Part shown: positions 28,264-41,840 of the stretch, in pieces
Numbering within the stretch: position 1 is the first letter of the stretch
Layout of the letters: the number at the start of each line of letters is the position of its first letter
Assembly: GCA_002788675.1 (NCBI GenBank)
Contig: PFRS01000005.1
Span: forward strand, 314,635-378,634
DNA length: 64,000 nt
Direction: 5' to 3'
From: Candidatus Pacebacteria bacterium CG_4_9_14_0_2_um_filter_40_15
GTDB taxonomy: Bacteria > Patescibacteriota > Microgenomatia > UBA1400 > PJMF01
Program-made: the position numbers and the translations under genes
The notes under the pieces: generated by a model
Database searches by the model: none
The model's input: only the letters and a program-made list of their open reading frames with translations
What the model was told of the DNA's origin: nothing

Positions 28264-28356
28264 GAGTGTAACAAAAATGAATGTAGAAAAACACCAGAAC
28301 ATACGCTCAGAAATTAGAACGAGTCTAGAAACTATTTCAAAATAAAACTAAAAAAA

Positions 28357-28545
28357 TTAGTAAGCTTTTGTCGCGCCGTCTGCAATTGCTTTTTCAGCAT
28401 TTGCTTTAGACATCATTGCACAAACTGTTGTTCCACACGTGTGCTTTCCTTTAGCCATGAAACCACCTTTTGCAGTTTGGTGAATAGCTGGTGCTGACAA
28501 TTCAACGCCTTTTTCTTTACATTTAACGCAGTATCCTGTGACCAT
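28357..28545 (-). CDS. DUF5679-like zinc-ribbon protein
   Basis: YCVKCK...KGKHTCGT. Confidence 0.75.
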   Translation of the reverse strand: MVTGYCVKCKEKGVELSAPAIHQTAKGGFMAKGKHTCGTTVCAMMSKANAEKAIADGATKAY

Positions 28546-28702
28546 GACTGTCTCCCTATAAATTATATCTTGGTACATTGTACAGCCATTTTATGATGAT
28601 GCATACCTTAAAGATAAAAGCAGACCAATCTACTGTTTTTTTCGGTGGCAAATTCAAAATTTTGTATCAGAAAATATAAAACGTAAGCTCATAATTCGCA
28701 TC

Positions 28703-29155
28703 TTACAAATAATCATCGATCTTAATTTTCTTTTGCTGCATCAATATCTGAAATGAGTTTGGTCTCTGCATGAGTTCTTCTATATTTTCAGGAACAATTT
28801 GCCAACTCAAACCGTATGTATCTTTACACCAACCACACTGCTCAGAATCAGGATGTGCAGAAAGTTTACTCCAATAGTAATCTATCTCTGATTGGTCTTT
28901 ACAAAACACAGCAAAAGATACCGCTTCAGTAAATTTGAATTCGTCACCTGCATTTATAGCGGTAAAGGCCTGACCATTTAATTCAAAATCGATTGTTAAC
29001 ACCTTACCCGCAAATTCCTTTTGAAAATCTGCTAGGCCTTCTTCAGGATAGTAAACAGTACTAATAACTTTACTATCCTTAAAAACTGATGTGTAAAATT
29101 CTACGGCTTCTTGAGCATTTCTTGAAAACCACAAGTTGGGAATAATTTTTTTCAT
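28703..29155 (-). CDS. VOC family PhnB-like protein
   Basis: IIPNLWF, EIDYYW and CGWCKDTYGLSWQIVP. Confidence 0.9.
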   Translation of the reverse strand: MKKIIPNLWFSRNAQEAVEFYTSVFKDSKVISTVYYPEEGLADFQKEFAGKVLTIDFELNGQAFTAINAGDEFKFTEAVSFAVFCKDQSEIDYYWSKLSAHPDSEQCGWCKDTYGLSWQIVPENIEELMQRPNSFQILMQQKKIKIDDYL

Positions 29156-29177
29156 ACTTTTAACCCTTTCAATGGAT

Positions 29178-29528
29178 TTATTTTCTTAAAATTTTTTCAA
29201 TTGTTTTACCTTTTGCCAACTCATCTATCAACTTATCCAAGAAACGGATCTCTTTCATTAGTGGTTCTTTAATTTCTTGTATTTTTACACCACATATACT
29301 ACCTGTAATCAAAAACCTAGAAGGATTTAATTTTGTTGCTTGTTTAAAAAAAGTCTCGAAGTCTGTTTGTTTTTTTATGTGAGCATCCAGATCATGTTGA
29401 GAGTAACCTGTTAACCAGGTAATAATCTCATCTACTTCTGATTTAGTTCTTCCTTTTTTCTCAACTTTTGCAATATAAAGTGGATACACACTGGCAAAAC
29501 TCATTGTATAAATTCTTTGTGAAGTCAT
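29178..29528 (-). CDS. DUF2200 family protein
   Basis: [18 protein letters not shown]...[11 protein letters not shown]. Confidence 0.88.
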
Positions 29529-29588
29529 AGTATGGTATATCCTTTTTTTGAATTATCAGTTTATAAATAGTTATTCGGCTAGAGCTAT

Positions 29589-29969
29589 TTATGCTTCAAC
29601 TTCAACAACAAAACCACCATATGCCATTTTTTTCATATCAAATGGCATTTGAAAATCTTTGTATTCTGAGGCATTTTCACCCATCTCTTCCATGACTTTA
29701 GCATTAACTTGATCCCGATGTTCTTTTGACTTAAACACTATAAATGAAAACCAAACCGATTCACTGTTTTTTGCGCCTGCCATTTCTGTAAATGAGCGTG
29801 ATTTTTCCTCACCCATTTCTTGTGCAGCCATGTCATCTCCACGACACTCATAATATTCTAATGCACCATGCTTCATCCAGGAATCTCTGCCATCTTCGGC
29901 CATTTTTTTATATTCTTCAGATTTGTCTTTTGGGACTACTAATACGAATCCATCAATATATTTTGACAT
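29589..29969 (-). CDS. DUF1428 family protein
   Basis: YIDGFVLVVP...HRDQVNAKVM...PFDMKKMAYGGF. Confidence 0.88.
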   Translation of the reverse strand: MSKYIDGFVLVVPKDKSEEYKKMAEDGRDSWMKHGALEYYECRGDDMAAQEMGEEKSRSFTEMAGAKNSESVWFSFIVFKSKEHRDQVNAKVMEEMGENASEYKDFQMPFDMKKMAYGGFVVEVEA

Positions 29970-30146
29970 ATTTGCCTTCCGAATAGTTTACTTTTATGAA
30001 AGTATATCAGAAGTTTAAGCGTCCACTGCGTGGTATTACACCTACTTGAAGAAAAAAGTATTGCTGAGTATCTGGAACAATTGTGGTATTATTGGCTCAC
30101 AGCTATAGAGGAAATTAGAAACTGTTTTACCTGAAAAAATTGAAAA

Positions 30147-30428
30147 CTATGATTTGTTTTTCCCAGTGAGAATAAGTGTGTCTGAGGCGTCGTTGTGAAC
30201 TTTTCCACTACCGACATGTTTACTGCTGATTTTTGAACCGTTCTTAATGACATGAAACAATGCCATGCCATGTCCACGACCCAGCTCATACTCATCTTTT
30301 AGCCAAGTAAGTACTTCGCTTGCTTTAGTACTTTTACCAAAACCTTTCAGTTTAGCTTCATCTAAAAGCTGTTGTGGAGTTTTACCTGTTTTTTCTTCAA
30401 TTTTATCTAGGTATGCTTGAAACGACAT
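30147..30428 (-). CDS. DUF4287 family protein
   Basis: MSFQAYLDKIEEKTGKT...WLKDEYELGRGHGMAL. Confidence 0.85.
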   Translation of the reverse strand: MSFQAYLDKIEEKTGKTPQQLLDEAKLKGFGKSTKASEVLTWLKDEYELGRGHGMALFHVIKNGSKISSKHVGSGKVHNDASDTLILTGKNKS

Positions 30429-30530
30429 AGCTCTATTATACGTTAAAAATCTATATTTTCCAAAAAAAAGGTTCTAACCTCTACTTCTGGGTATTATGTT
30501 ATTAAGATATTCTTCTTGAAGTAAAATAAA

Positions 30531-30628
30531 GGGCTCCCCAGAAAGGTTGTACTCGAACTAGGAGGTGGGTTGAAGGTTATTTATTCAAAAATAACAAACT
30601 CATCTTAAAATCTGCGTGTCAATTTTAA
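30531..30628 (+). repeat. Decayed att scar / orphan recombinase C-terminal tail
   Basis: GCTCCCC matches the tRNA-Asn 3' end; ACTCGAAC lies 15 bp after the GCTC core; frameshifted tail LPRKVV/RTRRWVEGYLF...*. Confidence 0.5.
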
Positions 30629-30861
30629 TTCTATAGATTAGTTCGAGACCCATCGGGATCAATAAAAATTACTTGAGATAAAAAATTAAAGGTATTAAAC
30701 CCCAGGGCAAGCCCAGGACCAAATTCCGAGGCAAGCCTCGGGGTATTAACCGCATAAGGAAAAATTAAACTAGGAAAGACCCTTAATATAATATTTAGTA
30801 TTTGATCCCCCCCCACAATAGATCAATCACTCTAAAAGCGTAGGTATTGCTAGTAAAAATT

Positions 30862-31008
30862 TTATAATTTAAACCCTAATAAGCGGGCGATAAATACTAT
30901 TACTGCGATAACCAACAGCAGATGAATCATACCTCCCCCCATTTTTAAACCAAATCCACCTATCCACGAAATGACTAAAATTGCGATAATGATGTCTATT
31001 ATCCCCAT
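30862..31008 (-). CDS. lmo0937/DUF5670-like small membrane protein, 48 aa (not in the ORF track)
   Basis: MGIIDIIIAILVISWIGGFGLKMGGGMIHLLLVIAVIVFIARLLGFKL; AAGGAG SD. Confidence 0.8.
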   Translation of the reverse strand: MGIIDIIIAILVISWIGGFGLKMGGGMIHLLLVIAVIVFIARLLGFKL

Positions 31009-31047
31009 ATTTCTCCTTTTTTTAATTAACTACTAGTTCTAAATAAA

Positions 31048-31344
31048 CTATTTCTTCCAGATCTTTTTTACTTCTTTATTAGATTTTTTTGCAGCATCAG
31101 CTGTTTGTTCTAATTTTGATTTACTATCAGCGACTTGATCATTAGCTGTCTTCATATAAGTTGAAGCCTTTGCTTTTACGTCATCGACAATTTCTTTAAC
31201 CTTTTCTTGATTTTTATTATTTCTCATTGCCACTACTCCTGCAGCAACCACACTAGCGCCGACAACGGCTCCAGTGACAGCAGCGACGACTGTATTTGAA
31301 ACATTCTTTAGGTCATCCGATTTTTTTTGTTTAGTATTAGTCAT
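31048..31344 (-). CDS. YtxH-like general stress protein
   Basis: Hydrophobic AAVTGAVVGA segment plus a Lys/Ala-rich coiled tail. Confidence 0.6.
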   Translation of the reverse strand: MTNTKQKKSDDLKNVSNTVVAAVTGAVVGASVVAAGVVAMRNNKNQEKVKEIVDDVKAKASTYMKTANDQVADSKSKLEQTADAAKKSNKEVKKIWKK

Positions 31345-31376
31345 AATTTTTAACTTTCTTTTCTAATTTATAGTAA

Positions 31377-31598
31377 TTATTCTATAGGGTTAGCTGGAGC
31401 ATCAACATTTACCTGTGGAGCCTCGACATTTATTTCTGGGGTTGGTACATTTACCTGGATTACTCTCCTGCTTTGCAATGCAGGAATCCCATACGTAACT
31501 AGTAAACCCAAGGAAACTATCAAGAAAACTACTACAATGATGAAGCCAAATCCACCAGAGTTTTGCTGTGGTGCTGGGTTATTTACAACTGTTGCCAT
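31377..31598 (-). CDS. Small single-TM protein
   Basis: TM plus repeated (I/V)NV.AP tail; AAGGAG SD. Confidence 0.7.
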   Translation of the reverse strand: MATVVNNPAPQQNSGGFGFIIVVVFLIVSLGLLVTYGIPALQSRRVIQVNVPTPEINVEAPQVNVDAPANPIE

Positions 31599-31715
31599 AT
31601 CACTCCTTTTATTTCAATTAATTATCTTCAAAGATAAGTATGCGCCGATTAATCACTAGATTCAGTGACTTGACACAGAAAAGGTTTGTGAGGGAAATTA
31701 CAAGTTAGCTGTGAG

Positions 31716-32375
31716 TTAAAGATTTTTTGTGCTAATGAGTTCTTGCTCTAACTTGGCAATATTACTAAAAATCATGTTATGATCGACAAATTCAACTAAT
31801 TTTTTTTGGGCTAATTTACCTAACTCAATACTAACTGTTTCTCTAGCGACCCCAACTAACGAGGCAATATCTTGATGAGTGAAACGATGCTGTACAATTA
31901 TTTTAGTCCCATTTTTATTACCAAAATAGGTAGCCAGGTAGAGTAGAACGGAAATAACTCTCCTGTACGCATCACTAAAAACTAAGTGTTCGATTCTTGC
32001 GAGTGATTCTTCATAGCGTCTGAGTAGTTCACACATTAGCTCAGAAATTAAATCTGGCTTGTTTTTAATAAACTCCAAGACCTGATTCTTTGGAGCTCTA
32101 CCAATCTCAACAGGTGTAAGTGCCTCATAAAAATATACGTTTGGCGTATTGTTGAAAGCCCATACCATGGGGAAATAGGAAATAGGTTGCAGAATATGTA
32201 AAGTTAATTCTTCACCAGTATGCGAAATAATATATTGGCGAACATATCCTTTAGTGAGGCAAAAAATACCTTGAGGGTCATCATCCGCCCTGATCAGCAT
32301 TTCTCCTTGTTTATACAATCGCAGTTGAAACTGAGAAAAAAATTCTTCAAATACTTTGGTTTTACTTTTATTCAC
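31716..32375 (-). CDS. Crp/Fnr family transcriptional regulator
   Basis: cNMP-fold N-terminal domain; HTH THQDIASLVGVARETVS. Confidence 0.92.
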   Translation of the reverse strand: MNKSKTKVFEEFFSQFQLRLYKQGEMLIRADDDPQGIFCLTKGYVRQYIISHTGEELTLHILQPISYFPMVWAFNNTPNVYFYEALTPVEIGRAPKNQVLEFIKNKPDLISELMCELLRRYEESLARIEHLVFSDAYRRVISVLLYLATYFGNKNGTKIIVQHRFTHQDIASLVGVARETVSIELGKLAQKKLVEFVDHNMIFSNIAKLEQELISTKNL

Positions 32376-32426
32376 TATCTTGATTATAGCCTATGCATAG
32401 CAAAATTTGTGAGCAATAGAGGTTAA

Positions 32427-32525
32427 TGGCTCGCCGTGATGGACGATATTCGAACTGAGCTATTCAAAAAATCATTTCCATATTTGTCATATTCAGAAAT
32501 AGAAAACTTGCTAAATACAATTTAA
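32427..32525 (+). repeat. Left attachment junction carrying the displaced recombinase C-terminus
   Basis: TGGCTC equals the tRNA 3' GAGCCA on the minus strand; GCTC core shared with 41768-41771; in-frame tail AVMDDIRTELFKKSFPYLSYSEIENLLNTI*. Confidence 0.7.
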
Positions 32526-32529
32526 AAAG

Positions 32530-33426
32530 CTAATCTTTCAAAGATGATATATCAATGCTTTCGGAAATATCACCTGGGTTTAAATCTAATTGAAAATATT
32601 GACTTCCGTCACTGCCTTTTGAATTTATTTCTATTTCTAAATTAACTGGCTTCTCATTAATAGTGATAAAAAGATAGTCATTGAAAAAAAATGCACCTTG
32701 CTCAGGCTTGATTTCAGAAATATCACAGCTTGCAAGTCTGTCAGAACATTGAATGTTTGTTCTGTAATTTCTAGTAATGTCAATATTAGGTAAAAATGAA
32801 GACAATCCCATTAAATAATTGTCACAAGTCGGCGTAGGTTTTTCTGGTAAATTTAAATCATAAATAGAGTCCTTAATATATCCCTCTGAAAGCCTTGCAT
32901 TTATTGATATACGTTCATCGTACCTATCTGAGTTAACCTTTAGCATAAAACAAATAGTATTTTTACCACTCTTGAAATATGAGTCCAATCTTTCAATATA
33001 ATCTTGAAGCAATTCGATGTAATCGGCTACATCTTGCCTTGATTTAATTCCATCAAAAGGAAATCTGATTAATGGATTAACTAAATTTGGTAGTTCTTCT
33101 TCCAATTCTTGAATCTCATCTTTAATTGCCCGCACTGTCTCTTCGGCTGTTAACTTATAAAAACTTGCATCTATTTCAAACTTTGTAGTTGAGTTTTTAC
33201 TCTTTTCATTTGCAATATATTCTTTTCTCCACACATTATATATGGATATAAAAACAATGATTATTAAATAATAATTAGTCAGACTTTTGGGTAAAGTATA
33301 TGCGTCACCATTGCTGATATAAACAGAAATAAAATCATAAACAGATGGGAGCAACAATGCCAAATTTGACCACTGCAAAAAAACTCTACTGATAAATATG
33401 TAAATTTTAATAATTTCTTTCTTCAT
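32530..33426 (-). CDS. Hypothetical protein with two N-terminal hydrophobic helices and a coiled coil
   Basis: ATGA overlap with the CHAT gene at 33423-33426. Confidence 0.75.
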   Translation of the reverse strand: MKKEIIKIYIFISRVFLQWSNLALLLPSVYDFISVYISNGDAYTLPKSLTNYYLIIIVFISIYNVWRKEYIANEKSKNSTTKFEIDASFYKLTAEETVRAIKDEIQELEEELPNLVNPLIRFPFDGIKSRQDVADYIELLQDYIERLDSYFKSGKNTICFMLKVNSDRYDERISINARLSEGYIKDSIYDLNLPEKPTPTCDNYLMGLSSFLPNIDITRNYRTNIQCSDRLASCDISEIKPEQGAFFFNDYLFITINEKPVNLEIEINSKGSDGSQYFQLDLNPGDISESIDISSLKD

Positions 33427-35249
33427 AATTTCTCAAGTTCATTTTTCAAAAAATAGGCAGCAGACATGTGGTTTTTTGCAATGCTTTTATCTAAATCTCT
33501 ACTTAGCACTCTCTTACTTCTTCTTTCTATATCTCTGCTCAATCTATGTTTTAGTTCAATTAAATTTTCATTTTCTGTTCCTTCAAACTTAAACTTTAAA
33601 AAATGACATCCAGTGATTACATATACCTTTTCATCCAATCCTGCTTCCTCTTGGCTTTCCCACAAAGCTTTTGGGAAAGGTGCGCTCATATTTATTGTCT
33701 TATTAAAAAATAACTTAGCTACATTTACAGCATCAGTATTTTTTACAGATTTAACTGTTCCAATATAAGTTGATGCGCCCCCGTAAATGAAATTACTTGA
33801 AAGCACATGATTTGAGATGCAAGCATTATTAAAAACAAAAGGAAAGGACTCTGGGTCAGACAAACTTGAAAATGATGGAATAAAGTTCTTTGAAACTCCT
33901 TTTGTAACTATTACATTACAATAATTTACGTTTTTCACTTTTCTCTGTTTTAAAACTTTCCAATCTTTTCTCTTCAACTTTGAGAACTCTGACACTATTT
34001 TTTTCGATGAACCCGGTTTATAAGTTTTCTCATACCATGGGCTTCCATCTAACTCTACAAATTCATAGAAGCTTTTAACATTAATTATGGCATCTTCACC
34101 TGTCCCAAAACCTGTGGGTTCGAAGGAATCTATAGCATCAACCACTATGACATGCTCACAGCCTCTACTATCAACAAACTGTATATCAAACCTTTGACCT
34201 TCTGGAAGTCCTCCATGACTACATATAAACAATAAATCGTAGGGATAAAACTGAATAGAATTGCTTAATTCGTAGTTTGTAAATTGATTATCCCAAAACT
34301 CTTTGGTAATAACTTCTTTTTGAGCCAACAAGTCACTCACATCATCTGTTTCAGAATCAGAAAAGAATCCAGTATCTACGAGAAGCGCTGATTTCACGAT
34401 TATTTCAGGGTTTGCTATTGATTCAGCGATAAAGTAGCCAGGCATTATTCGTCCTAAAATATGAGTTGATGCAATATTAGGATAGAAATAACCATAAGGA
34501 ATTTCATCAGTATAAAATGTCACAAAATCATAAGCTTCGATTTCACCAAAGTCCGCATCTAGCTCTGATTTTATACTTGCATTAATTTCTCTAGCTACAT
34601 CGCCTCTCGCTTCATTTGAATCATTATCAAAAATCAAAGCGGCAATTTCTTTAGAGGAATATTCTAAATCTGTTTGTATGAATTTAATATCAGCGTTAAT
34701 GGAAAACGCATAGTTAGCAACTATGACAGGAGACAACTCATCATCAATATCGTAATAAACACAATGCTTACTTGTTTGTTTAAATGAATATTTATAATTA
34801 GCTTTATTCGTAATTACCAATCTTTGTTTGTTCTTTTTTGCTATTAAAAGTGCTTGAGCAACTTTCTGTTTTTCTGGCTCACATTCTAAATTCCCCTCAA
34901 ACACAATATTCATTGGTTCTGCGATTTCCGACTTTATTTGAGATTTTTTTGTTACTGTTATGTATCTTTCTTCTGGAATTCGCAATTGGTCTTTGATGAT
35001 TTTAATGTATTTAGGATTAACACCCGCAAAAATACATATCTCAGGCCTAATCTTAGCCAAAATATTGTTTAGCTTTATTAATTCGTTACTCCAGTCATCT
35101 CTCAAAAACCTTGGTAATTCAAAAACACAAAAATAATCATTTGGTTCATAAAAACAACTTGATATTTGAGCAGCTAATATATGGTTCCCACTTATACATA
35201 TAACTTTATTTTTTATTGTCGGTGCGTTATCTGAATAGCTATGCATCAA
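33423..35249 (-). CDS. CHAT/caspase-like cysteine protease
   Basis: YDLLFICSHGG (His), PFVFNNAC (Cys) and GASTYIGT...AKLFF...KALW, matching the CHAT pattern. Confidence 0.7.
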   Translation of the reverse strand: MMHSYSDNAPTIKNKVICISGNHILAAQISSCFYEPNDYFCVFELPRFLRDDWSNELIKLNNILAKIRPEICIFAGVNPKYIKIIKDQLRIPEERYITVTKKSQIKSEIAEPMNIVFEGNLECEPEKQKVAQALLIAKKNKQRLVITNKANYKYSFKQTSKHCVYYDIDDELSPVIVANYAFSINADIKFIQTDLEYSSKEIAALIFDNDSNEARGDVAREINASIKSELDADFGEIEAYDFVTFYTDEIPYGYFYPNIASTHILGRIMPGYFIAESIANPEIIVKSALLVDTGFFSDSETDDVSDLLAQKEVITKEFWDNQFTNYELSNSIQFYPYDLLFICSHGGLPEGQRFDIQFVDSRGCEHVIVVDAIDSFEPTGFGTGEDAIINVKSFYEFVELDGSPWYEKTYKPGSSKKIVSEFSKLKRKDWKVLKQRKVKNVNYCNVIVTKGVSKNFIPSFSSLSDPESFPFVFNNACISNHVLSSNFIYGGASTYIGTVKSVKNTDAVNVAKLFFNKTINMSAPFPKALWESQEEAGLDEKVYVITGCHFLKFKFEGTENENLIELKHRLSRDIERRSKRVLSRDLDKSIAKNHMSAAYFLKNELEKL

Positions 35250-35252
35250 TTT

Positions 35253-35924
35253 TTAATCCTGTCTCTCTTGCCAAGGGGCTATATTGCTCTCCCCAGTTTC
35301 TTCTGTTCTTACTTCTCTAGGACTAATGACCTCTTTACTAAAAACAATATCTGGTAAATCATATTTCTTATCGTATTCAAATGCCTCTTTTCCAACGTTA
35401 ATTTCAAAAACAGATGTTGTGGGGTTTACTACAACCAACTCAGCAATTGTATCCGGGTGGTTTCTCACATTCCTAACTGCCCATATTGGATAATCTATTA
35501 ACTTCTCATTTGCATACTTCTTTATCTCTTCATAATCAACACCATCTGTAGTAAATAAATGTACAAGCATCAAATATTCTGAAGAATAAGCTCCGCTCAA
35601 TTTCCTAGTCCTAATGAGCTGTTCAAGCAAAGACTCTTTAGATTTACGATAGCTAGTTAATTCAATAGTGGTTATATCCATTGACACACCATTTGGCTGC
35701 ATGAGATATGCATCTGGCGGGTCTTGCAGCGGCATTCGTAGATAAGTTGGCAAACCTCTAATTTTACTCAACACAAACGCTGCTATTGCAGCAATTCTAG
35801 ACTCTCTGACTACCTTATTCTCAGGTTTTATTAAAGCCCCAACACCTTGCTCCTGTTCAAATTTTTGAATATGCATGAATGTGTTTGTCGGAGAATGCCA
35901 TCTTTTATTAAATTGTCTTTTCAT
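35253..35924 (-). CDS. Hypothetical protein, PD-(D/E)xK nuclease-like
   Basis: DPPDAYL...IELT motif; stop codon 3 nt before the CHAT start. Confidence 0.5.
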   Translation of the reverse strand: MKRQFNKRWHSPTNTFMHIQKFEQEQGVGALIKPENKVVRESRIAAIAAFVLSKIRGLPTYLRMPLQDPPDAYLMQPNGVSMDITTIELTSYRKSKESLLEQLIRTRKLSGAYSSEYLMLVHLFTTDGVDYEEIKKYANEKLIDYPIWAVRNVRNHPDTIAELVVVNPTTSVFEINVGKEAFEYDKKYDLPDIVFSKEVISPREVRTEETGESNIAPWQERQD

Positions 35925-36023
35925 CTTGATTTTATTGTATCAAAATAAAACATTTATAATAAAATGGATTTATGATATTGACTGGCGATTTATTAATTCT
36001 GATTTAAGGTAGTGCTTCTAACA

Positions 36024-36836
36024 CTATCCCTTAGCAATTGCGTCAGCCCAACTGTATTTATCATCTTTGTAAATCTTTTTCATTTTTCTATCAAAATCTC
36101 TCCAATTTTTTACCAACTCTGGCATCTCAATCTTTTGTTCGTGAGGAAGTCCTATATCTGCATTGAAATTTAGCGGATTAATTTGAAAACCATTTTTTGT
36201 AACTAGTGCAATCTGCAAATGTTTGCTCACACCCGGATGAGGATTTCTAAAAACATCGTATGACAATACAACTCCCAATACCTGTGCGTAACCAAATTGA
36301 TTTCCTACCTCCATCTGCATAAGCTTCTCAGGCTCACTATGAATTCTTTCCAAATCATCTAGATAGACTTGCTTATTGTTACCACTTCCAATCGATAAAG
36401 GACTATGCACCCTTGAAGCTTCATACTCAAAACTGGGTGCTTTTAACTTCGCTACAAAAGACTTTGGTTGTCCTTTACTCCCATTATCTGCTATAGGGTC
36501 TACTGCAACTATAATCATGGAGAACGGTCTTTTCTTTTCTTCAGGAAGCTTTGAGTATAGTTCTTTCGCCCTTTTACCCCACTCTCTGGCTAATTGGTCA
36601 GGAATCCATCCTCCTTTACTCCTGGATGACATAAAGTCCCTTAAGGCTTGAGTAAACATAAACCCTGTTTCTATATCACCACTAAAACCAGACATAGCAA
36701 ACTCACCTACTGGATATATTTTTTGAACAACATCATGGAAATCTTCTTTACCATCAGGGAAAGATACAGTAGCTTGAACATCAGAGATTAAAACACCATA
36801 GCCAAACATTGTAGGAATACCAATAACCCAAGTCAT
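36024..36836 (-). CDS. Proteasome beta-subunit-like Ntn hydrolase
   Basis: N-terminal Thr (M-TWVIG), ISD, QKI, GFSG and IGSG in the order seen in beta subunits and HslV. Confidence 0.7.
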   Translation of the reverse strand: MTWVIGIPTMFGYGVLISDVQATVSFPDGKEDFHDVVQKIYPVGEFAMSGFSGDIETGFMFTQALRDFMSSRSKGGWIPDQLAREWGKRAKELYSKLPEEKKRPFSMIIVAVDPIADNGSKGQPKSFVAKLKAPSFEYEASRVHSPLSIGSGNNKQVYLDDLERIHSEPEKLMQMEVGNQFGYAQVLGVVLSYDVFRNPHPGVSKHLQIALVTKNGFQINPLNFNADIGLPHEQKIEMPELVKNWRDFDRKMKKIYKDDKYSWADAIAKG

Positions 36837-36870
36837 ATACCAATTATAACCCGAAAATAATTATTGCGAT

Positions 36871-37179
36871 TTAAGAACTTAAGTATTGCTCTTTACACTC
36901 TTTGCGAAGATTATCTCTGCCGTTTGATGTTGCATCATATAATCTTGTGCAATCTTCTCCCTCAAGTCCATTATTCTCACAAGCTCTAGGAAGTGCTTCT
37001 ATGTTGTTAGAGTACCATTCTTCAGCTTTACCTAAGCAGGATTCATATTGTTCCTGTCTGTCTTTTAGAGCCTCTTCCTCTTTAATTTTATCCTGTCTCC
37101 ACATAATGAATATTCCTAATATCGTGAACGAAATTATTAATGCTGCGATTACAAGTGAATTTATTTTTTTCATATTCAT
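36871..37179 (-). CDS. Small single-TM protein with four Cys
   Basis: N-terminal TM; helical domain with Cys pairs. Confidence 0.65.
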   Translation of the reverse strand: MNMKKINSLVIAALIISFTILGIFIMWRQDKIKEEEALKDRQEQYESCLGKAEEWYSNNIEALPRACENNGLEGEDCTRLYDATSNGRDNLRKECKEQYLSS

Positions 37180-37236
37180 ATTTTACTATGAATACTGCGT
37201 TGTTGCATACTGCGGAATAGTCAAGAATTACTCTTG

Positions 37237-37455
37237 ATGGAAGAAAAGCAAAAAGTAACAGAACTAGTGGGAGATGAAATTCGAAAACACAGAGAAGAAT
37301 CTGGTCTTTCGCAGGAAGAACTTTCAGCAAAAGCTGGTTTATATAGAACCTATGTTGGTCATGTAGAAGTAGGTCGTTACACACCTTCAATCTATACTCT
37401 CTTCAAGATAGCCAGAGCTCTCAAAGTTAAAGTCTCAGAAATAATACCCTTTTAG
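37237..37455 (+). CDS. XRE/HTH_3 regulator (controller-protein-like)
   Basis: GLSQEELSAKAGLYRTYVGHVEVG...SIYTLFKIARAL. Confidence 0.9.
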   Translation: MEEKQKVTELVGDEIRKHREESGLSQEELSAKAGLYRTYVGHVEVGRYTPSIYTLFKIARALKVKVSEIIPF

Positions 37456-37633
37456 TGGGAAAAGACCCCTTATTCCCATATATGGAAAAAACTTTCTCTT
37501 TAATGAGAGAAGGTTAATAGCCTATGGGGGGGCTGGACATGGTAAAAACCCACCAAATAATTTCTGATATTGCAGTCTCAGCTCAAAAATTCGCACTAAA
37601 TTTTGTACTCGTATCTTATACAATATAGTTAAT

Positions 37634-38323
37634 ATGAGTATGATTATGGATAATGAAGAACTACATGAAGCTATTGCAGACTTTAGCATGAGTGAGCTTA
37701 GTGAAGTGAAAGACTTACTGGTTGAAATTATCTCAAGTTACAAAAACTTTCATAAGGATGAACTGGCATTTAGTATTCAAGTTGATACTAAAAAAAAGAG
37801 AACTATTTACCTTTTAGAAGGTTTACTATCACATGCTGATATCTACTACACTCCAAGCACATTACGATGGTCTAAAGATGGTGAATACTTAGTTGATTTT
37901 GGTGCAAAGGATGGTGATTGGCTTGAATACTCAGCAGTATCTACACTAGAGCAAATACGAAAAGCAATTAATGACAGACTTGTAAATCAAGCTGATTCAA
38001 AATTGAAGCTATCAACCAAAAACAACTTGATTCATATTGTGCATTACAGAAAAGATGGCTCAATAGTTACAGCAAAAATTTTAGGAAATTCTAATAGTGG
38101 AAAAATTTTAAGTTCTTTGAGAAAGAATTCAGCGATGACTCTAAGTGAATTATCTAAAGTCATGAATGAACCAAGAAAACATGCCGATAGTCCTCTTCCA
38201 GAAAAGAGAGTCCACGATGCCATCAAATACATTAGAGATAAACTCAAAATTGAAGCTAACTCACCAAATGACATTTTCAATATCGTTGGCAAAGAATGCC
38301 AGCTAATCATTCCTACTGAATAA
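37634..38323 (+). CDS. Hypothetical protein with C-terminal winged-helix
   Basis: MTLSELSKVM...RVHDAIKYIRDKL resembles an OmpR-type wHTH. Confidence 0.55.
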   Translation: MSMIMDNEELHEAIADFSMSELSEVKDLLVEIISSYKNFHKDELAFSIQVDTKKKRTIYLLEGLLSHADIYYTPSTLRWSKDGEYLVDFGAKDGDWLEYSAVSTLEQIRKAINDRLVNQADSKLKLSTKNNLIHIVHYRKDGSIVTAKILGNSNSGKILSSLRKNSAMTLSELSKVMNEPRKHADSPLPEKRVHDAIKYIRDKLKIEANSPNDIFNIVGKECQLIIPTE

Positions 38324-38351
38324 ACTTCCATAACTTCCGAAAAAATCCGAC

Positions 38352-38388
38352 AAACTCTTGGCTAAATTGCTAAGAGTTTTTTGTTTTT
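38352..38388 (+). terminator. Intrinsic terminator
   Basis: AAACTCTTGGC-taaatt-GCTAAGAGTTT followed by a T-tract. Confidence 0.65.
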
Positions 38389-38421
38389 AACCGAAGTAAA
38401 TTACTAGAGAATATATCTAGT

Positions 38422-38670
38422 ATGAAGAACAAAACGAATTATTATAGCTCTGATTTATCACTGGTCACTACTCTTTCTTTAGACTTTCCAATCATTGGAA
38501 TAGATAGAAGAAATCCATCTAGGATTATCTTTGAATTTGAAAGCTCTAGAGAATTATCCGCCCGAATAAAAGAATACTGGAATGCTGAATTATTTATTGA
38601 GCCACAACGATTTTTTACACAACTAAAGTATATAAAAGCACAAGTATTTGGGAGGCCTAATGCTGAGTAA
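38422..38670 (+). CDS. DUF5659-like protein
   Basis: SSDLSL...IIFEFE...YWNAELFIEPQRFF...LK. Confidence 0.7.
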   Translation: MKNKTNYYSSDLSLVTTLSLDFPIIGIDRRNPSRIIFEFESSRELSARIKEYWNAELFIEPQRFFTQLKYIKAQVFGRPNAE

Positions 38671-38836
38671 TAAATCAGTAATCAGCCTCCAGCAAGTCAT
38701 GAACGAAGATGGTTTACATCTAAACCAAGAAGAGACAAGGTCTCTTGGTGAGTTGTTAGTCAGTATAGGACTTCAATTAAAAATGAGTATTAAAAATAAT
38801 AATGAATATGAAAATAAAAACACAAAGCGTAGTTGA
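38660..38836 (+). CDS. Small hypothetical protein
   Basis: GGAGG SD before ATG; overlaps both neighbours. Confidence 0.5.
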   Translation: MLSNKSVISLQQVMNEDGLHLNQEETRSLGELLVSIGLQLKMSIKNNNEYENKNTKRS

Positions 38837-39644
38837 TACTGCACACTATTTTCTATCACAACGAGTAAGCATTATTCCTGTCACAAAAGACAAGAAGCCG
38901 TATGCAGGGTTTAGTTGGGATGCATATAAAAAACGCTTTCCCACTCAGGATGAAATAGATATCTGGTTTAGATATGTATATCCAAATGCAAATTTAGCCA
39001 TAGTAACTGGAGCGCTTTCAAAACTAATAATACTAGATATAGACCCCAGAAATGGTGGTGATATATCTTTGTTAAAAAACAATAAAAGCCCATCAGTTTC
39101 AACACCAAACAATGGAAAACACATATATTTCAGACCAACTAACCTTGTAAAATCTGCCAAGCATAGTGCACTAGGATATGACCTACTCTATGAAGCTTTA
39201 GCTCTTGTCCCGCCCTCCCTTACAGTAAATGGTGCATATGAATGGATAAACTCATTTAATAGAAATAACATAGAAGAGTTTCCAAAATATTTACTTAGCA
39301 AGCTAGAACTCATTCAACCTAAACAGAATGAAGCTTCTGCCAAACCACTTAGTCAAAAAAAAGGCAATCAAAAAACTCAGTTAAGAGGTATTGAGGTTAG
39401 GCACGCACGAGATTATCCCCTAGATAGATTGCTATTAAGTGATGGTGTAAATCTCATCCAACGAACAAATAGCTACCACCTTACCTGCCCATTTCATAGT
39501 GATAGGAAGTCTTCAGCTGTTTACTATCCATCCACCAACTTGGTTTATTGCTTCAAATGTTCAAGAGCATTTAATCCAATTGATTACCTAACGATAGCAA
39601 AAGGTTATTCATTCAGGGAAGCCTTAAAGGAATTAACAGAATGA
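38802..39644 (+). CDS. Bifunctional primase-polymerase (PrimPol) with CHC2 zinc finger
   Basis: KKP, NLAIVTG, ILDID, TPNNGKHIYF, VPPS and CPFH...YCFKC. Confidence 0.85.
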   Translation: MNMKIKTQSVVDTAHYFLSQRVSIIPVTKDKKPYAGFSWDAYKKRFPTQDEIDIWFRYVYPNANLAIVTGALSKLIILDIDPRNGGDISLLKNNKSPSVSTPNNGKHIYFRPTNLVKSAKHSALGYDLLYEALALVPPSLTVNGAYEWINSFNRNNIEEFPKYLLSKLELIQPKQNEASAKPLSQKKGNQKTQLRGIEVRHARDYPLDRLLLSDGVNLIQRTNSYHLTCPFHSDRKSSAVYYPSTNLVYCFKCSRAFNPIDYLTIAKGYSFREALKELTE

Positions 39645-40051
39645 AAAGCAAGGCATTAAGAATAAAAGAAAAGAGAACAAAAGGTTTTCTTAAATTTCCA
39701 AGAAAACTTATTGAGCTTGTTCTCAGTGGAGATGTATCTGATAGAGCTTTCAGTCTATACCTGGTTATTATCAACCTTGCTGTTTATTCTGAAAATAGTT
39801 CCTACTATGGATGCCTTGAACTTAATCCTCATAACCTTTCAGAAATTTTCTCTAAATCTTCAAATACAGTTAGCAAAAACTTTAATGAACTTCTCTCACT
39901 TGGTCTCATTAACAAAGTAGACAAAGATTTGATTGAGGTTATCAACTTCAAAAAACTGTTTGATGATACTCAATATATGGAGGAAGCTTCCTCAGATTTA
40001 GTTAATAAAGTTTCAAAAATGAGAGGAGAAATATCACATATGAAAAGCTAA
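39641..40051 (+). CDS. HTH replication-associated protein
   Basis: FLKFPR...LYL...LSEIFSKSSNTVSKNFNELLSLGLI; ATGA overlap with PrimPol. Confidence 0.6.
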   Translation: MKSKALRIKEKRTKGFLKFPRKLIELVLSGDVSDRAFSLYLVIINLAVYSENSSYYGCLELNPHNLSEIFSKSSNTVSKNFNELLSLGLINKVDKDLIEVINFKKLFDDTQYMEEASSDLVNKVSKMRGEISHMKS

Positions 40052-40175
40052 GCAGCACTTTTCACCTATGTACTGGTGAATTTAAATGCTTATTAAGGTT
40101 CTTAATGTTATTAGGTTTCTTAGTAAGAAATACATAAACAATAAAGTATATATACCTGTGAATACGTAGGTTAGA

Positions 40176-41780
40176 ATGAAAGATAATATGAACAATAAAA
40201 ACATAGCTGCACTCTGGTGCAGAGTAAGCAGTCCAGACCAAGAAACTTCTGGGTATTCACTACCTGCTCAGGAAGAACTTTTAAGAGAGTACGCTACACG
40301 AAAAGGAATTCAAAAGGTTGATTTTTTCTCTGTTTCAGAAAGTGCTAAATCTAGTCAAGTAAGAGCAAGTTTTAAAGAGCTGTTCAGCCATGTAAAAAAA
40401 CATAACATCAATATAGTAATTTGCGAAAAAGTTGACAGATTAACCAGAAACTTTTACGACATGATAATGATTGATGAATGGCTTGAGAAAGACCATGAAA
40501 GAGAAATACACCTCGTAAAAGATTCGCTAGTTCTTCACGCTGGCTCTCGTTCTCAGGATAAATTAAATTGGAACTTAAAAGTTTTATTAGCAAAAAATTA
40601 CATTGATAATCTCAGAGAGGAAGTTAAAAAGGGTCAACTGATGAAACTCAAGCATGGCTGGCTACCAACTAGACCTCCATATGGTTATAAAACTGAAGGA
40701 AACAAGGGGCACAAAATTCACGTCATAGATAATGAAACTGCACCAATTGTAAAGAAACTCTTTCAACTCTACTCAACTGGCAACTACTCACTTAAAGCCA
40801 TTACAGAAAAAGCAAATGAGCTTGGTTTAAGAAGTTCAAAGGGTAATCCAGTTGTTAAAAGTAGAATACACAAACTGCTTCAGGATAAGTTCTACATTGG
40901 CATTAATATTTGGAATGATACTGAGTATCCTGGTAAACAAGAAACATTCATCGAGGAAGAATTATTCTACCTGGTGAAGAGGGTTATGAAAGGTGGCTTT
41001 AACAATACACGCACTTACTCAAAGCATAACTATCTTTTTAGAGGAATGTTTAAGTGTGAACACTGTAAAGGCACAATCACCTGGGAAGAACAGAAAGGTA
41101 TTGTGTATGGTCACTGCAACCACTACAAACCATGCCCCTCAAAAGATTGGGCTCGTGAAGATTCTGTCGAAAAGCAAGTTAAAAAGTCATTAAAGTCACT
41201 GGTAATAAAAAACAAGCGAGTATTAAACTGGCTAAGAGATGAACTGAGCACACGCATTCATGAAGAAACTGATGTATATGTAGCTTCAATAGAACAACTT
41301 AAAAAAGACTTAGTGCTCACTGAAAGGGCTCAAGAGCGACTCTATGATGACAAGCTTTATGAACGTATCCCTGAGTCAATGTATGACCGAAAGGCAAATG
41401 AGTTTAAGAATAAGACTAAGAAGCTAGAGAAACAAATAAAGGAGCTCTCTGGTGGCACTGATAAAGCTAGACAGGTCGGACTAAGTATCTTTGACCTTGC
41501 ACAAGGTGGTCATATCATTTATGAAAAAGCTGATATTGAGAAACGTCAGCTACTTTTAAAACTGGTATATAAAACAAGAGAAATTTTCGAGGATACTTGT
41601 AGCTTAGAGTATACGGAAGAAATGGCATTACTATTGAAAGCAGTCAACCAGACTAATCGTTCGAAACTGGTGAAAAAAGTTGAGAAAATGGAAGCTACTT
41701 TCGAACCATCTGAAAAGATTGATTTAGCAAGAAAAAGTGACTCTTTTATGTCCTTGCGGACTGGTTTGCTCCCCCGGTAG
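40176..41780 (+). CDS. Large serine recombinase (integrase)
   Basis: RVSS catalytic Ser, DRLTR, PPYGY, zinc ribbon CEHC...C...C and coiled coil; stop codon lies inside the tRNA. Confidence 0.95.
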   Translation: MKDNMNNKNIAALWCRVSSPDQETSGYSLPAQEELLREYATRKGIQKVDFFSVSESAKSSQVRASFKELFSHVKKHNINIVICEKVDRLTRNFYDMIMIDEWLEKDHEREIHLVKDSLVLHAGSRSQDKLNWNLKVLLAKNYIDNLREEVKKGQLMKLKHGWLPTRPPYGYKTEGNKGHKIHVIDNETAPIVKKLFQLYSTGNYSLKAITEKANELGLRSSKGNPVVKSRIHKLLQDKFYIGINIWNDTEYPGKQETFIEEELFYLVKRVMKGGFNNTRTYSKHNYLFRGMFKCEHCKGTITWEEQKGIVYGHCNHYKPCPSKDWAREDSVEKQVKKSLKSLVIKNKRVLNWLRDELSTRIHEETDVYVASIEQLKKDLVLTERAQERLYDDKLYERIPESMYDRKANEFKNKTKKLEKQIKELSGGTDKARQVGLSIFDLAQGGHIIYEKADIEKRQLLLKLVYKTREIFEDTCSLEYTEEMALLLKAVNQTNRSKLVKKVEKMEATFEPSEKIDLARKSDSFMSLRTGLLPR

Positions 41781-41840
41781 GATTCGAACCTACAACCTAC
41801 CGGTTAACAGCCGGGCGCTCTGCCATTGAGCTACAGGGGA
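41769..41840 (-). tRNA. tRNA-Asn (GTT), CCA not encoded in the current state
   Basis: TCCCCTGTAGCTCAATGGCAGAGCGCCCGGCTGTTAACCGGTAGGTTGTAGGTTCGAATCCTACCGGGGGAG folds as a cloverleaf. Confidence 0.95.

Follow-up and report, generated by a model that had tools for sequence, protein, structure and literature searches.

The 64,000-nt stretch of DNA analysed here (the window) comes from the 1.22-Mb genome of Candidatus Pacebacteria bacterium CG_4_9_14_0_2_um_filter_40_15 (G000; labels with G, L, X and P denote the genomes, contigs, sequencing runs and proteins compared). At 32429-41767 it carries an island, almost certainly an integrative element, in which the attachment (att) site falls inside the gene for the large serine integrase. 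The integrated gene encodes 534 amino acids (aa), and excision would replace its last residues with a 30-residue tail to give a 562-aa enzyme. We propose, with a probability of roughly 0.55, that this tail is an activity switch, such that the 562-aa enzyme of the circle would be fully active and the integrated 534-aa form damped. The basic layout has already been published for the Dehalococcoides integrase DsiB and for the Myxococcus phage Mx8. New here are a branch point in the population that coincides with the core, an att geometry that fits the published one to the base with a tRNA T-loop as motif, and a non-circular selection test on the tails of the family.

Junctions and the two forms of the integrase

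The island is bounded by two GCTC cores on the forward strand. The left core (attL) at 32429-32432 is an exact sequence match, and its crossover dinucleotide would be TC at 32431-32432. The right core (attR) at 41768-41771 coincides with integrase codons 531-532 and with the discriminator end of a tRNA-Asn(GTT) gene (41768-41840, reverse strand), the sole Asn tRNA found by ARAGORN in G000. The original prediction of 4-bp cores and a 9339-bp circle was exact: the cores are separated by 9339 bp and share one integrase frame, so that integration swaps the C terminus of the integrase and attP lies within its gene.

The integrated gene (40176-41780, forward strand) ends in LLPR, and its final two codons and stop come from the antisense strand of the tRNA-Asn gene. 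The detached 3' end of the integrase gene (32433-32525, forward strand) consists of 30 codons (32433-32522) and a TAA stop (32523-32525), the latter 4 bp before the stop of a convergent cargo gene. Excision at the core joins these codons to the integrase frame, and the predicted lengths of 534 and 562 aa for the two forms are likewise exact.

The integrase matches the Resolvase (PF00239, 64.8 bits) and Recombinase (PF07508, 56.4 bits) families, and its zinc ribbon (PF13408) scores 24.3 bits, slightly below the cut-off of 25.3. Both R16-V17-S18, which includes the catalytic serine Ser18, and the zinc-ribbon cysteines C294, C297, C314 and C320 are invariant in 92 sequences. The model of the 534-aa form has long helices at 347-394 and 400-451, in keeping with the coiled coil of large serine recombinases, and the model of a tailed homologue is best matched by serine integrase-DNA complexes (Foldseek; 9dxd, E 1.3e-20). 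Judged by its catalytic domain, Recombinase domain, four cysteines and att geometry, the enzyme belongs to the large serine recombinases of the phage type.

Relatives of the integrase at E<=1e-60 occur in 25 of 286 genomes of the order (a tally that includes the unpublished G159) and in 40 of 401 genomes of the class. In 42 of 57 relative stretches, and in the window, a tRNA arm (mostly of tRNA-Asn, in some cases of tRNA-Gln) holds the end of an integrase in register. Among 120 listed homologues, 90 have an end that is tRNA-like or no longer than 3 residues, and 30 end otherwise. A protein search with integrase residues 400-534 returned only the integrase itself, and no paper on this family was found in the literature covered (mostly open-access main texts). 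An intron of 170-230 bp is called in the target tRNA of several relatives (G106, G108, G038, G501, G574, G461 and others), for which the identity assigned by ARAGORN varies. ARAGORN found no tmRNA in G000, where it may be permuted or missed.

Attachment-site geometry and recombination at the left junction

When the right arms of elements are compared with the integrase-coding left arms, symmetry is highest about a T|C centre (0.351, versus 0.23-0.28 for six other registers). Counted from this centre, both element arms have GGAC at positions 10-13, and the tRNA arms have GGA at 10-12. The T-loop motif occupies 13-19 in the tRNA arms (43) and 18-24 in the element arms (56). In the window, the element (P') arm at 32432-32455 (forward strand) has GGAC at 32441-32444 and a T-loop-like motif at 32449-32455, and the tRNA (B') arm at 41771-41789 (forward strand) has GGA at positions 10-12 and the motif at 41783-41789. 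The 5-bp offset between the arms that had been noted earlier is exact, as ATTCGAAC begins at the 11th base past the core in the tRNA arm (41782) and at the 16th in the element arm (32448).

In the sites of the Listeria integrase LI, the zinc-domain (ZD) motif lies at 16-24 in attP and at 11-19 in attB, a shift of 5 bp (Rutherford et al., PMC3783163). By sequence, the T-loop DNA thus stands at the place of the ZD motif in attB, with a copy 5 bp further out in the element arm, a base-exact fit to the published geometry. We infer that crossover occurs at the TC of GCTC and that the recombinase domain reads GGA(C) at 10-13; the zinc domain would recognise the T-loop DNA of the tRNA, at 13-19, in attB and its copy, at 18-24, in attP. 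On the host side, 50 non-integrase left arms have nearly no consensus past position 5, and a host arm so little conserved would account for repeated insertions at one tRNA end.

A 4-bp match alone is no proof of a junction, and the left one was therefore tested by an arm matrix and by read assemblies. With a matrix of the 55 best arms from outside G000 (taken from other genomes and one metagenome contig), 32429 ranked first of 152,648 xCT sites on both strands of G000, with a score of 24.6 and a runner-up at 20.1; an earlier 9-arm matrix had placed it only 6th of 36,105 sites. The 57 relative stretches were also searched with a matrix built leave-genome-out, the opposite strand serving as decoy: the window arm scored 27.1 versus 17.2 for the best decoy, and 81 matches versus 8 decoys passed the threshold. 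The runner-up in G000 (G000:C8:42294, forward strand) is far from the tRNA-Asn gene and may be a chance match or a stray arm.

The read evidence consists of assembled contigs, from which rare variants drop out, of 7 runs out of 24 listed. Among the listed contigs of run X11, a single break falls within 31000-41767, and its overlap reaches to 32432, where the core ends. A 56-bp contig (depth 10.6, versus 32.6 for the island) forms the branch and joins 32403-32432 to another element's arm; it leads to a different arm of the same design, not to the tRNA. Runs X2, X10, X23, X6, X8 and X9 are unbroken across 31000-41767, and the island is the major allele in X11, which could be the sample of origin. 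The alternative arm is also present in contig L096, whose DNA has matches in 10 of 286 genomes, several of them beginning at the first base of the core, and in G218, G216 (twice), G158 and G016 matches to the arm itself begin precisely with its core.

The left junction is real. Because the branch lies exactly after the core and leads to an arm that recurs in L096 and other genomes, the core has recombined in a natural population. When relatives were examined for the empty site, the left flank (31700-32450) matched one of 40 (G014) in an alignment that ends at 32378, and no clean empty site was seen among them. The related-locus search over genomes returned 1 locus. Two further contig joints with sides of 20-21 letters were set aside, as they likely come from other organisms. 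In L096, the alternative arm and a similar arm 779 bp away (92-206 and 871-985) flank a single gene for a 119-aa membrane protein, without an integrase, and both arms keep 38-residue frames.

The C-terminal tail and its possible roles

It had been suggested that homologous recombinases would carry tails of the type LxxxDxxRT. Such tails exist, as 19 of the 120 listed homologues carry an x-[FIVY]-R-[TK] tail in the same register (counted by eye), yet they are a weak test of a protein function, because DxxRT partly mirrors the DNA motif. Positions G11-A12, G21 and A23 of the arm encode the D, the R (middle base) and the T/N (first base); together with T18, these are the best-kept positions of the arm. 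The middle base of tail codon 8 is G in 54 of 56 arms, including those in which the codon specifies Gly, Cys or Ser. The tail could thus be a by-product of compact design, in which the att site overlaps the gene end by chance, DxxRT reflects DNA recognition and the tail is dispensable here. This reading is also favoured by the presence of every canonical domain in the 534-aa form, by the lack of a match between the window's tail and that of any relative beyond the motif, and by the parallel of DsiB, for which McMurdie et al. (PMC3146451) list such a trivial reading.

Selection on the tail argues against the by-product reading. On tail codons 11-30, which lie beyond the motif, the ratio of nonsynonymous to synonymous changes (pN/pS) is 0.32 in frame versus 1.38-2.01 in the other frames, for 35 pairs picked by integrase identity only (23 at 70-80% and 12 above 80%); a frame-blind choice of 64 pairs gives 0.30. 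Tail lengths cluster at 31-38 aa in frame, with no clustering in other frames, and tail identity tracks integrase identity (Spearman 0.57, 561 pairs of 34). Codon 8 encodes Arg in 48 of 56 arms, through both CGN and AGR, and the window's own tail, 30 aa long, has by eye the Pro of the family followed by Leu-Leu 10 residues later. Tails of at least 25 aa are found in 30 of 39 integrase-bearing units versus 7 of 23 integrase-less units, a count in which one false arm splits a G103 unit.

The tailed state is also seen in sequenced DNA of relatives. In the tandem arrays of G010 and G103, tailed integrases read into the arm of the next element, and in the phage contigs L164 and L180 tailed homologues lie mid-contig with no adjoining tRNA, the layout of a free form. 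None of 34 viral loci had an arm score above 15 or a terminal repeat. By these sequence measures, the tails of the relatives are under protein-level purifying selection, and the tail is very probably functional as a protein in the family, which leaves the by-product reading rather improbable. A near-identical 26-residue tail occurs as a detached arm in G220 (L192:1544) and as a fused integrase end in P0063.

Structure models suggest how an activity switch could work. In the model of the 534-aa form every core domain is completed by residue 493, and the end is of low confidence (predicted local distance difference test, pLDDT, 42-58). The model of the natural tailed homologue P0097, in which the crossover falls at residue 523, has helices at 513-531, 534-537 and 541-555 (pLDDT 61-77), and this helical module (513-555) sits behind a disordered linker. 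We therefore picture an element whose circle makes the 562-aa enzyme, which would integrate at the tRNA end. The crossover would cut into a small, predicted C-terminal helical module, flexibly linked to an otherwise complete enzyme, and leave the tail-less 534-aa form; since the module appears to be a linker-hung add-on, this form would be damped, not dead.

The island would then stay in place until it is acted on by a directionality factor (the candidate being its DUF5659 protein) or by full-length enzyme supplied from a circle or a tandem copy. With the host arm beyond the tRNA end hardly read, each new element could insert at the tRNA end before the older ones, and repeated insertion would build tandem arrays in which an inner integrase borrows the tail of the next element. 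The polarity of the switch, with the long form as the more active one, is close to an even call; it is proposed because of the analogy with Mx8 and the apparent quiescence of the island.

The tail might instead set the pairing of sites, with the long form integrating and the short form excising, or with the long form needed for excision. In large serine recombinases the reaction between attP and attB proceeds in one direction, and a separate directionality factor turns it back. Fusion to a directionality factor reverses the preference of a serine integrase (PMC5737554), and the complete enzyme of archaeal suicidal integrases is described as directionality-factor-like (PMC8371274). The tail module, on a flexible linker of ~25 residues and tracking the integrase subfamily, would suit such a role. 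A short form that excised unaided should make the island unstable, yet it is unbroken in six of the seven runs and the major allele in the seventh, and a separate candidate factor gene is conserved (DUF5659, 26 of 57). We consider a role in site pairing unlikely.

A third reading is a stability switch, in which the two C termini differ in protease sensitivity and one state holds little integrase. In mycobacteriophage BPs-type repressors, integration removes a C-terminal degradation tag, and the short form is predicted to end unstructured while tailed forms end in helices. The integrated ends, however, vary freely among 90 of the 120 homologues, and the tails share no terminal motif, their conservation being internal to the helices. 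A stability switch is very unlikely on these grounds.

Several observations weigh against the activity switch. All 5 cluster members end in LLPR, and neither the circle junction nor the empty-tRNA junction, for which a search of reads had been suggested, was present among the listed contigs of the 7 runs, in which rare forms are lost and absence cannot be shown; the 562-aa form is thus not observed. Tails shorter than 25 aa, which would also fit a by-product, occur in 9 of 39 integrase-bearing units (some may be mis-paired, and some elements may do without a long tail), and seven integrase-less units keep long tails. The pairs and units compared are kin, so the tail statistics overstate the case. 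Past residue 9, the window's tail was absent from the 15 best matches of a hidden Markov model of 22 relatives' tails. The nearest relative with known flanks is 49% identical, and with no closer relative of this kind the protein-level selection applies to the family, not to the tail of the window. The two modelled proteins (the 534-aa form and P0097) differ, being 44% identical. The arm matrix is biased toward the very motif that it then reveals, and the left element arm codes for protein as well.

As an activity switch, the element would work like DsiB and Mx8, and it differs from them in target, repeat, partner genes or enzyme class. DsiB is a serine integrase of ~540 aa. The 3' end of its gene overlaps the att site in every case and places the stop codon beyond the island, and its authors suggest that the enzyme may work fully only on the circle or with a 3' fragment from a neighbouring island (McMurdie et al. 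2011, PMC3146451). The window's family shares the gene that overlaps its att site with a stop outside the island, and the tandem islands at a tRNA-like 3' end. DsiB islands insert in the T-loop of the tmRNA and have a 20-bp direct repeat, whereas the window's element uses the discriminator end of tRNA-Asn and a 4-bp core and duplicates no tRNA fragment. Of the DsiB partners (DsiA, RecF-like, ParB and Mom), none is found among the 12 island open reading frames (ORFs) scanned against Pfam; the partners in the window are Prim-Pol and DUF5659. Divergent C termini are reported for DsiB, while in the window's family the circle-form tails are under selection. The comparison with DsiB is one of design.

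In phage Mx8, integration changes the 3' end of the integrase gene and the efficiency of the enzyme without inactivating it, attP lying inside the gene (PMC6070905). The position of attP is thus the same in both elements. The swapped integrase end of Mx8 is longer than that of the window. Mx8 is a phage with a tyrosine recombinase (it is treated so in Islander, PMC4383910), in contrast to the serine enzyme of the window.

Phage-type large serine integrases (Listeria LI/A118, PMC3783163; SPbeta, PMC11722253; Bxb1; phiC31) have the same domain order, short att sites, a 2-bp crossover and a ZD motif shifted by 5 bp that ends at 24 in attP and 19 in attB, as in the window's family. The window differs in that the gene spans attP, a tRNA T-loop provides the attB motif and, past position 5, the host arm is unconserved (50 junctions). 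In the phages named, the integrase genes sit beside attP and are not known to be interrupted.

Archaeal suicidal (SSV-type) integrases also have a gene split by its own integration, but they are tyrosine enzymes that lose their catalytic part (PMC8371274), whereas in the window only 30 residues behind a complete serine enzyme are lost. The same review calls self-disrupting recombinases exclusively archaeal. The serine recombinase of Ralstonia phage RSM likewise targets the 3' end of a tRNA, but it is of the small resolvase/invertase type, with a 13-bp tRNA duplication and attP between two genes (PMC3816273). According to the 2015 Islander paper, serine integrases were not known to target tRNA genes (PMC4383910).

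Unlike in integrons, which use the tyrosine integrase IntI and attC sites, no IntI family was found among the island and flank ORFs scanned, and the ends of the units are serine-integrase arms. A doubtful, wider reading is that a large family in ultra-small bacteria carries a swappable C-terminal module that sets direction without a separate factor, reads the near-universal tRNA T-loop as its attB and ignores the host arm. With a tail available at every junction, tandem units, including integrase-less cassettes, would re-arm the upstream integrase and be shuffled at the tRNA end, as a serine-recombinase counterpart of the integron with an enzyme that rewrites itself. On this reading, the X11 branch would reflect such shuffling within living populations.

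The tRNA end, the older flank and the genes of the island

The original prediction also held that integration removes the CCA encoded by the tRNA. The sequence change is exact, as the tRNA-Asn gene now ends GAG-CAA and excision would give GAG-CCA, but it appears incidental. CCA is encoded by 5 of 43 scored G000 tRNAs (one tRNA was skipped), and a PF01743 nucleotidyltransferase gene is present in the genome. In most relatives, a Trp codon of the integrase itself writes CCA onto the tRNA after insertion (about 32 of 43 integrase arms, an approximate count in which 4 of 43 cores are misplaced); the corresponding codon in the window is Leu.

The restored site is probably not the ancestral chromosome, because the flank beyond it holds an older arm at 30095 and, at 28687, what is probably a decayed core, and the restored CCA would belong to an older unit. 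This probable integrase-less unit (30095-32428) encodes a DUF4287 protein, two small ORFs and Crp. Its left arm reads a 12-residue frame like the outermost arm of the same-genus G001, and ranks first of 36,105 sites with the 9-arm matrix and 10th of 152,648 with the larger one. A still older unit (28687-30094; VOC-like, DUF2200 and DUF1428 genes) is possible and more weakly indicated, by a bare GCTC at 28687 near the place of the outermost core of G001. A DUF5679 gene (28357-28578, reverse strand) directly precedes the outermost arm in G001 and G014 and is likely a host-side landmark; the ancestral junction may tentatively be placed near 28687. At their outermost junctions, neither G001 nor G014 yields a CCA. 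An arm-like site at 28305 was rejected: its score is below that of the top decoy, its frame is stopped at codon 4, and it falls outside the DUF5679 landmark.

The window between 14000 and 32400 is dense in small accessory genes on the reverse strand, many of which occur at 70-83% DNA identity in G001 and G014 in a changed order; in G014, Crp lies on the other side of DUF5679. Integrase-less units abut tRNA-Asn in the same-genus G004 (1741 and 631 bp; G004:C7:21575-24907; L018, L191) and in G129 (217 and 648 bp; L195). Some of these have long open tails, and they may be decayed islands or cassettes moved in trans. Of the 23 integrase-less units in the 57 relative stretches, 21 span 0.3-4.5 kb, and 15 have frames of 10-15 residues that stop right past the DNA motif.

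Within the island, five cargo ORFs (298, 608, 223, 270 and 102 aa) at 32530-37179 run on the reverse strand, in the direction of the tRNA, and have no Pfam or PADLOC match at E 0.01; the 608-aa and 270-aa ORFs lie at 33423-35249 and 36024-36836. The remaining genes are on the forward strand. A 73-aa XRE-type helix-turn-helix regulator (37234-37455; PF01381, E 7.8e-15) has a tblastn match in 18 of 57 related stretches and is followed by a 229-aa ORF of no family (37634-38323). The 82-aa DUF5659 protein (38422-38670; PF18903), matched by tblastn in 26 of the 57, is a conserved partner gene and a candidate directionality factor, for which an Atlas search yielded no function. A 62-aa ORF of no family (38648-38836) precedes a replication module (38802-40051) of a 280-aa Prim-Pol with a CHC2 zinc finger and a 136-aa replisome-organiser-like protein, the latter under the Pfam cut-off. 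A promoter scan gave 38 sites, fewer than the 55 in shuffled sequence.

Serine integrases are widely used genome-writing tools, and the control of their directionality is the central question about them. A natural two-form enzyme would permit a direct test of whether a 30-residue tail sets activity or direction. If a 4-bp core and a tRNA T-arm suffice for such an integrase, many bacteria could be targeted with no landing pad. Insertions of this kind leave no duplicated tRNA fragment, so that finders relying on such a fragment would miss them. As about one in ten of the genomes searched in the order and class carries a close homologue, this family is likely to be one of the main routes by which small-genome bacteria gain genes.

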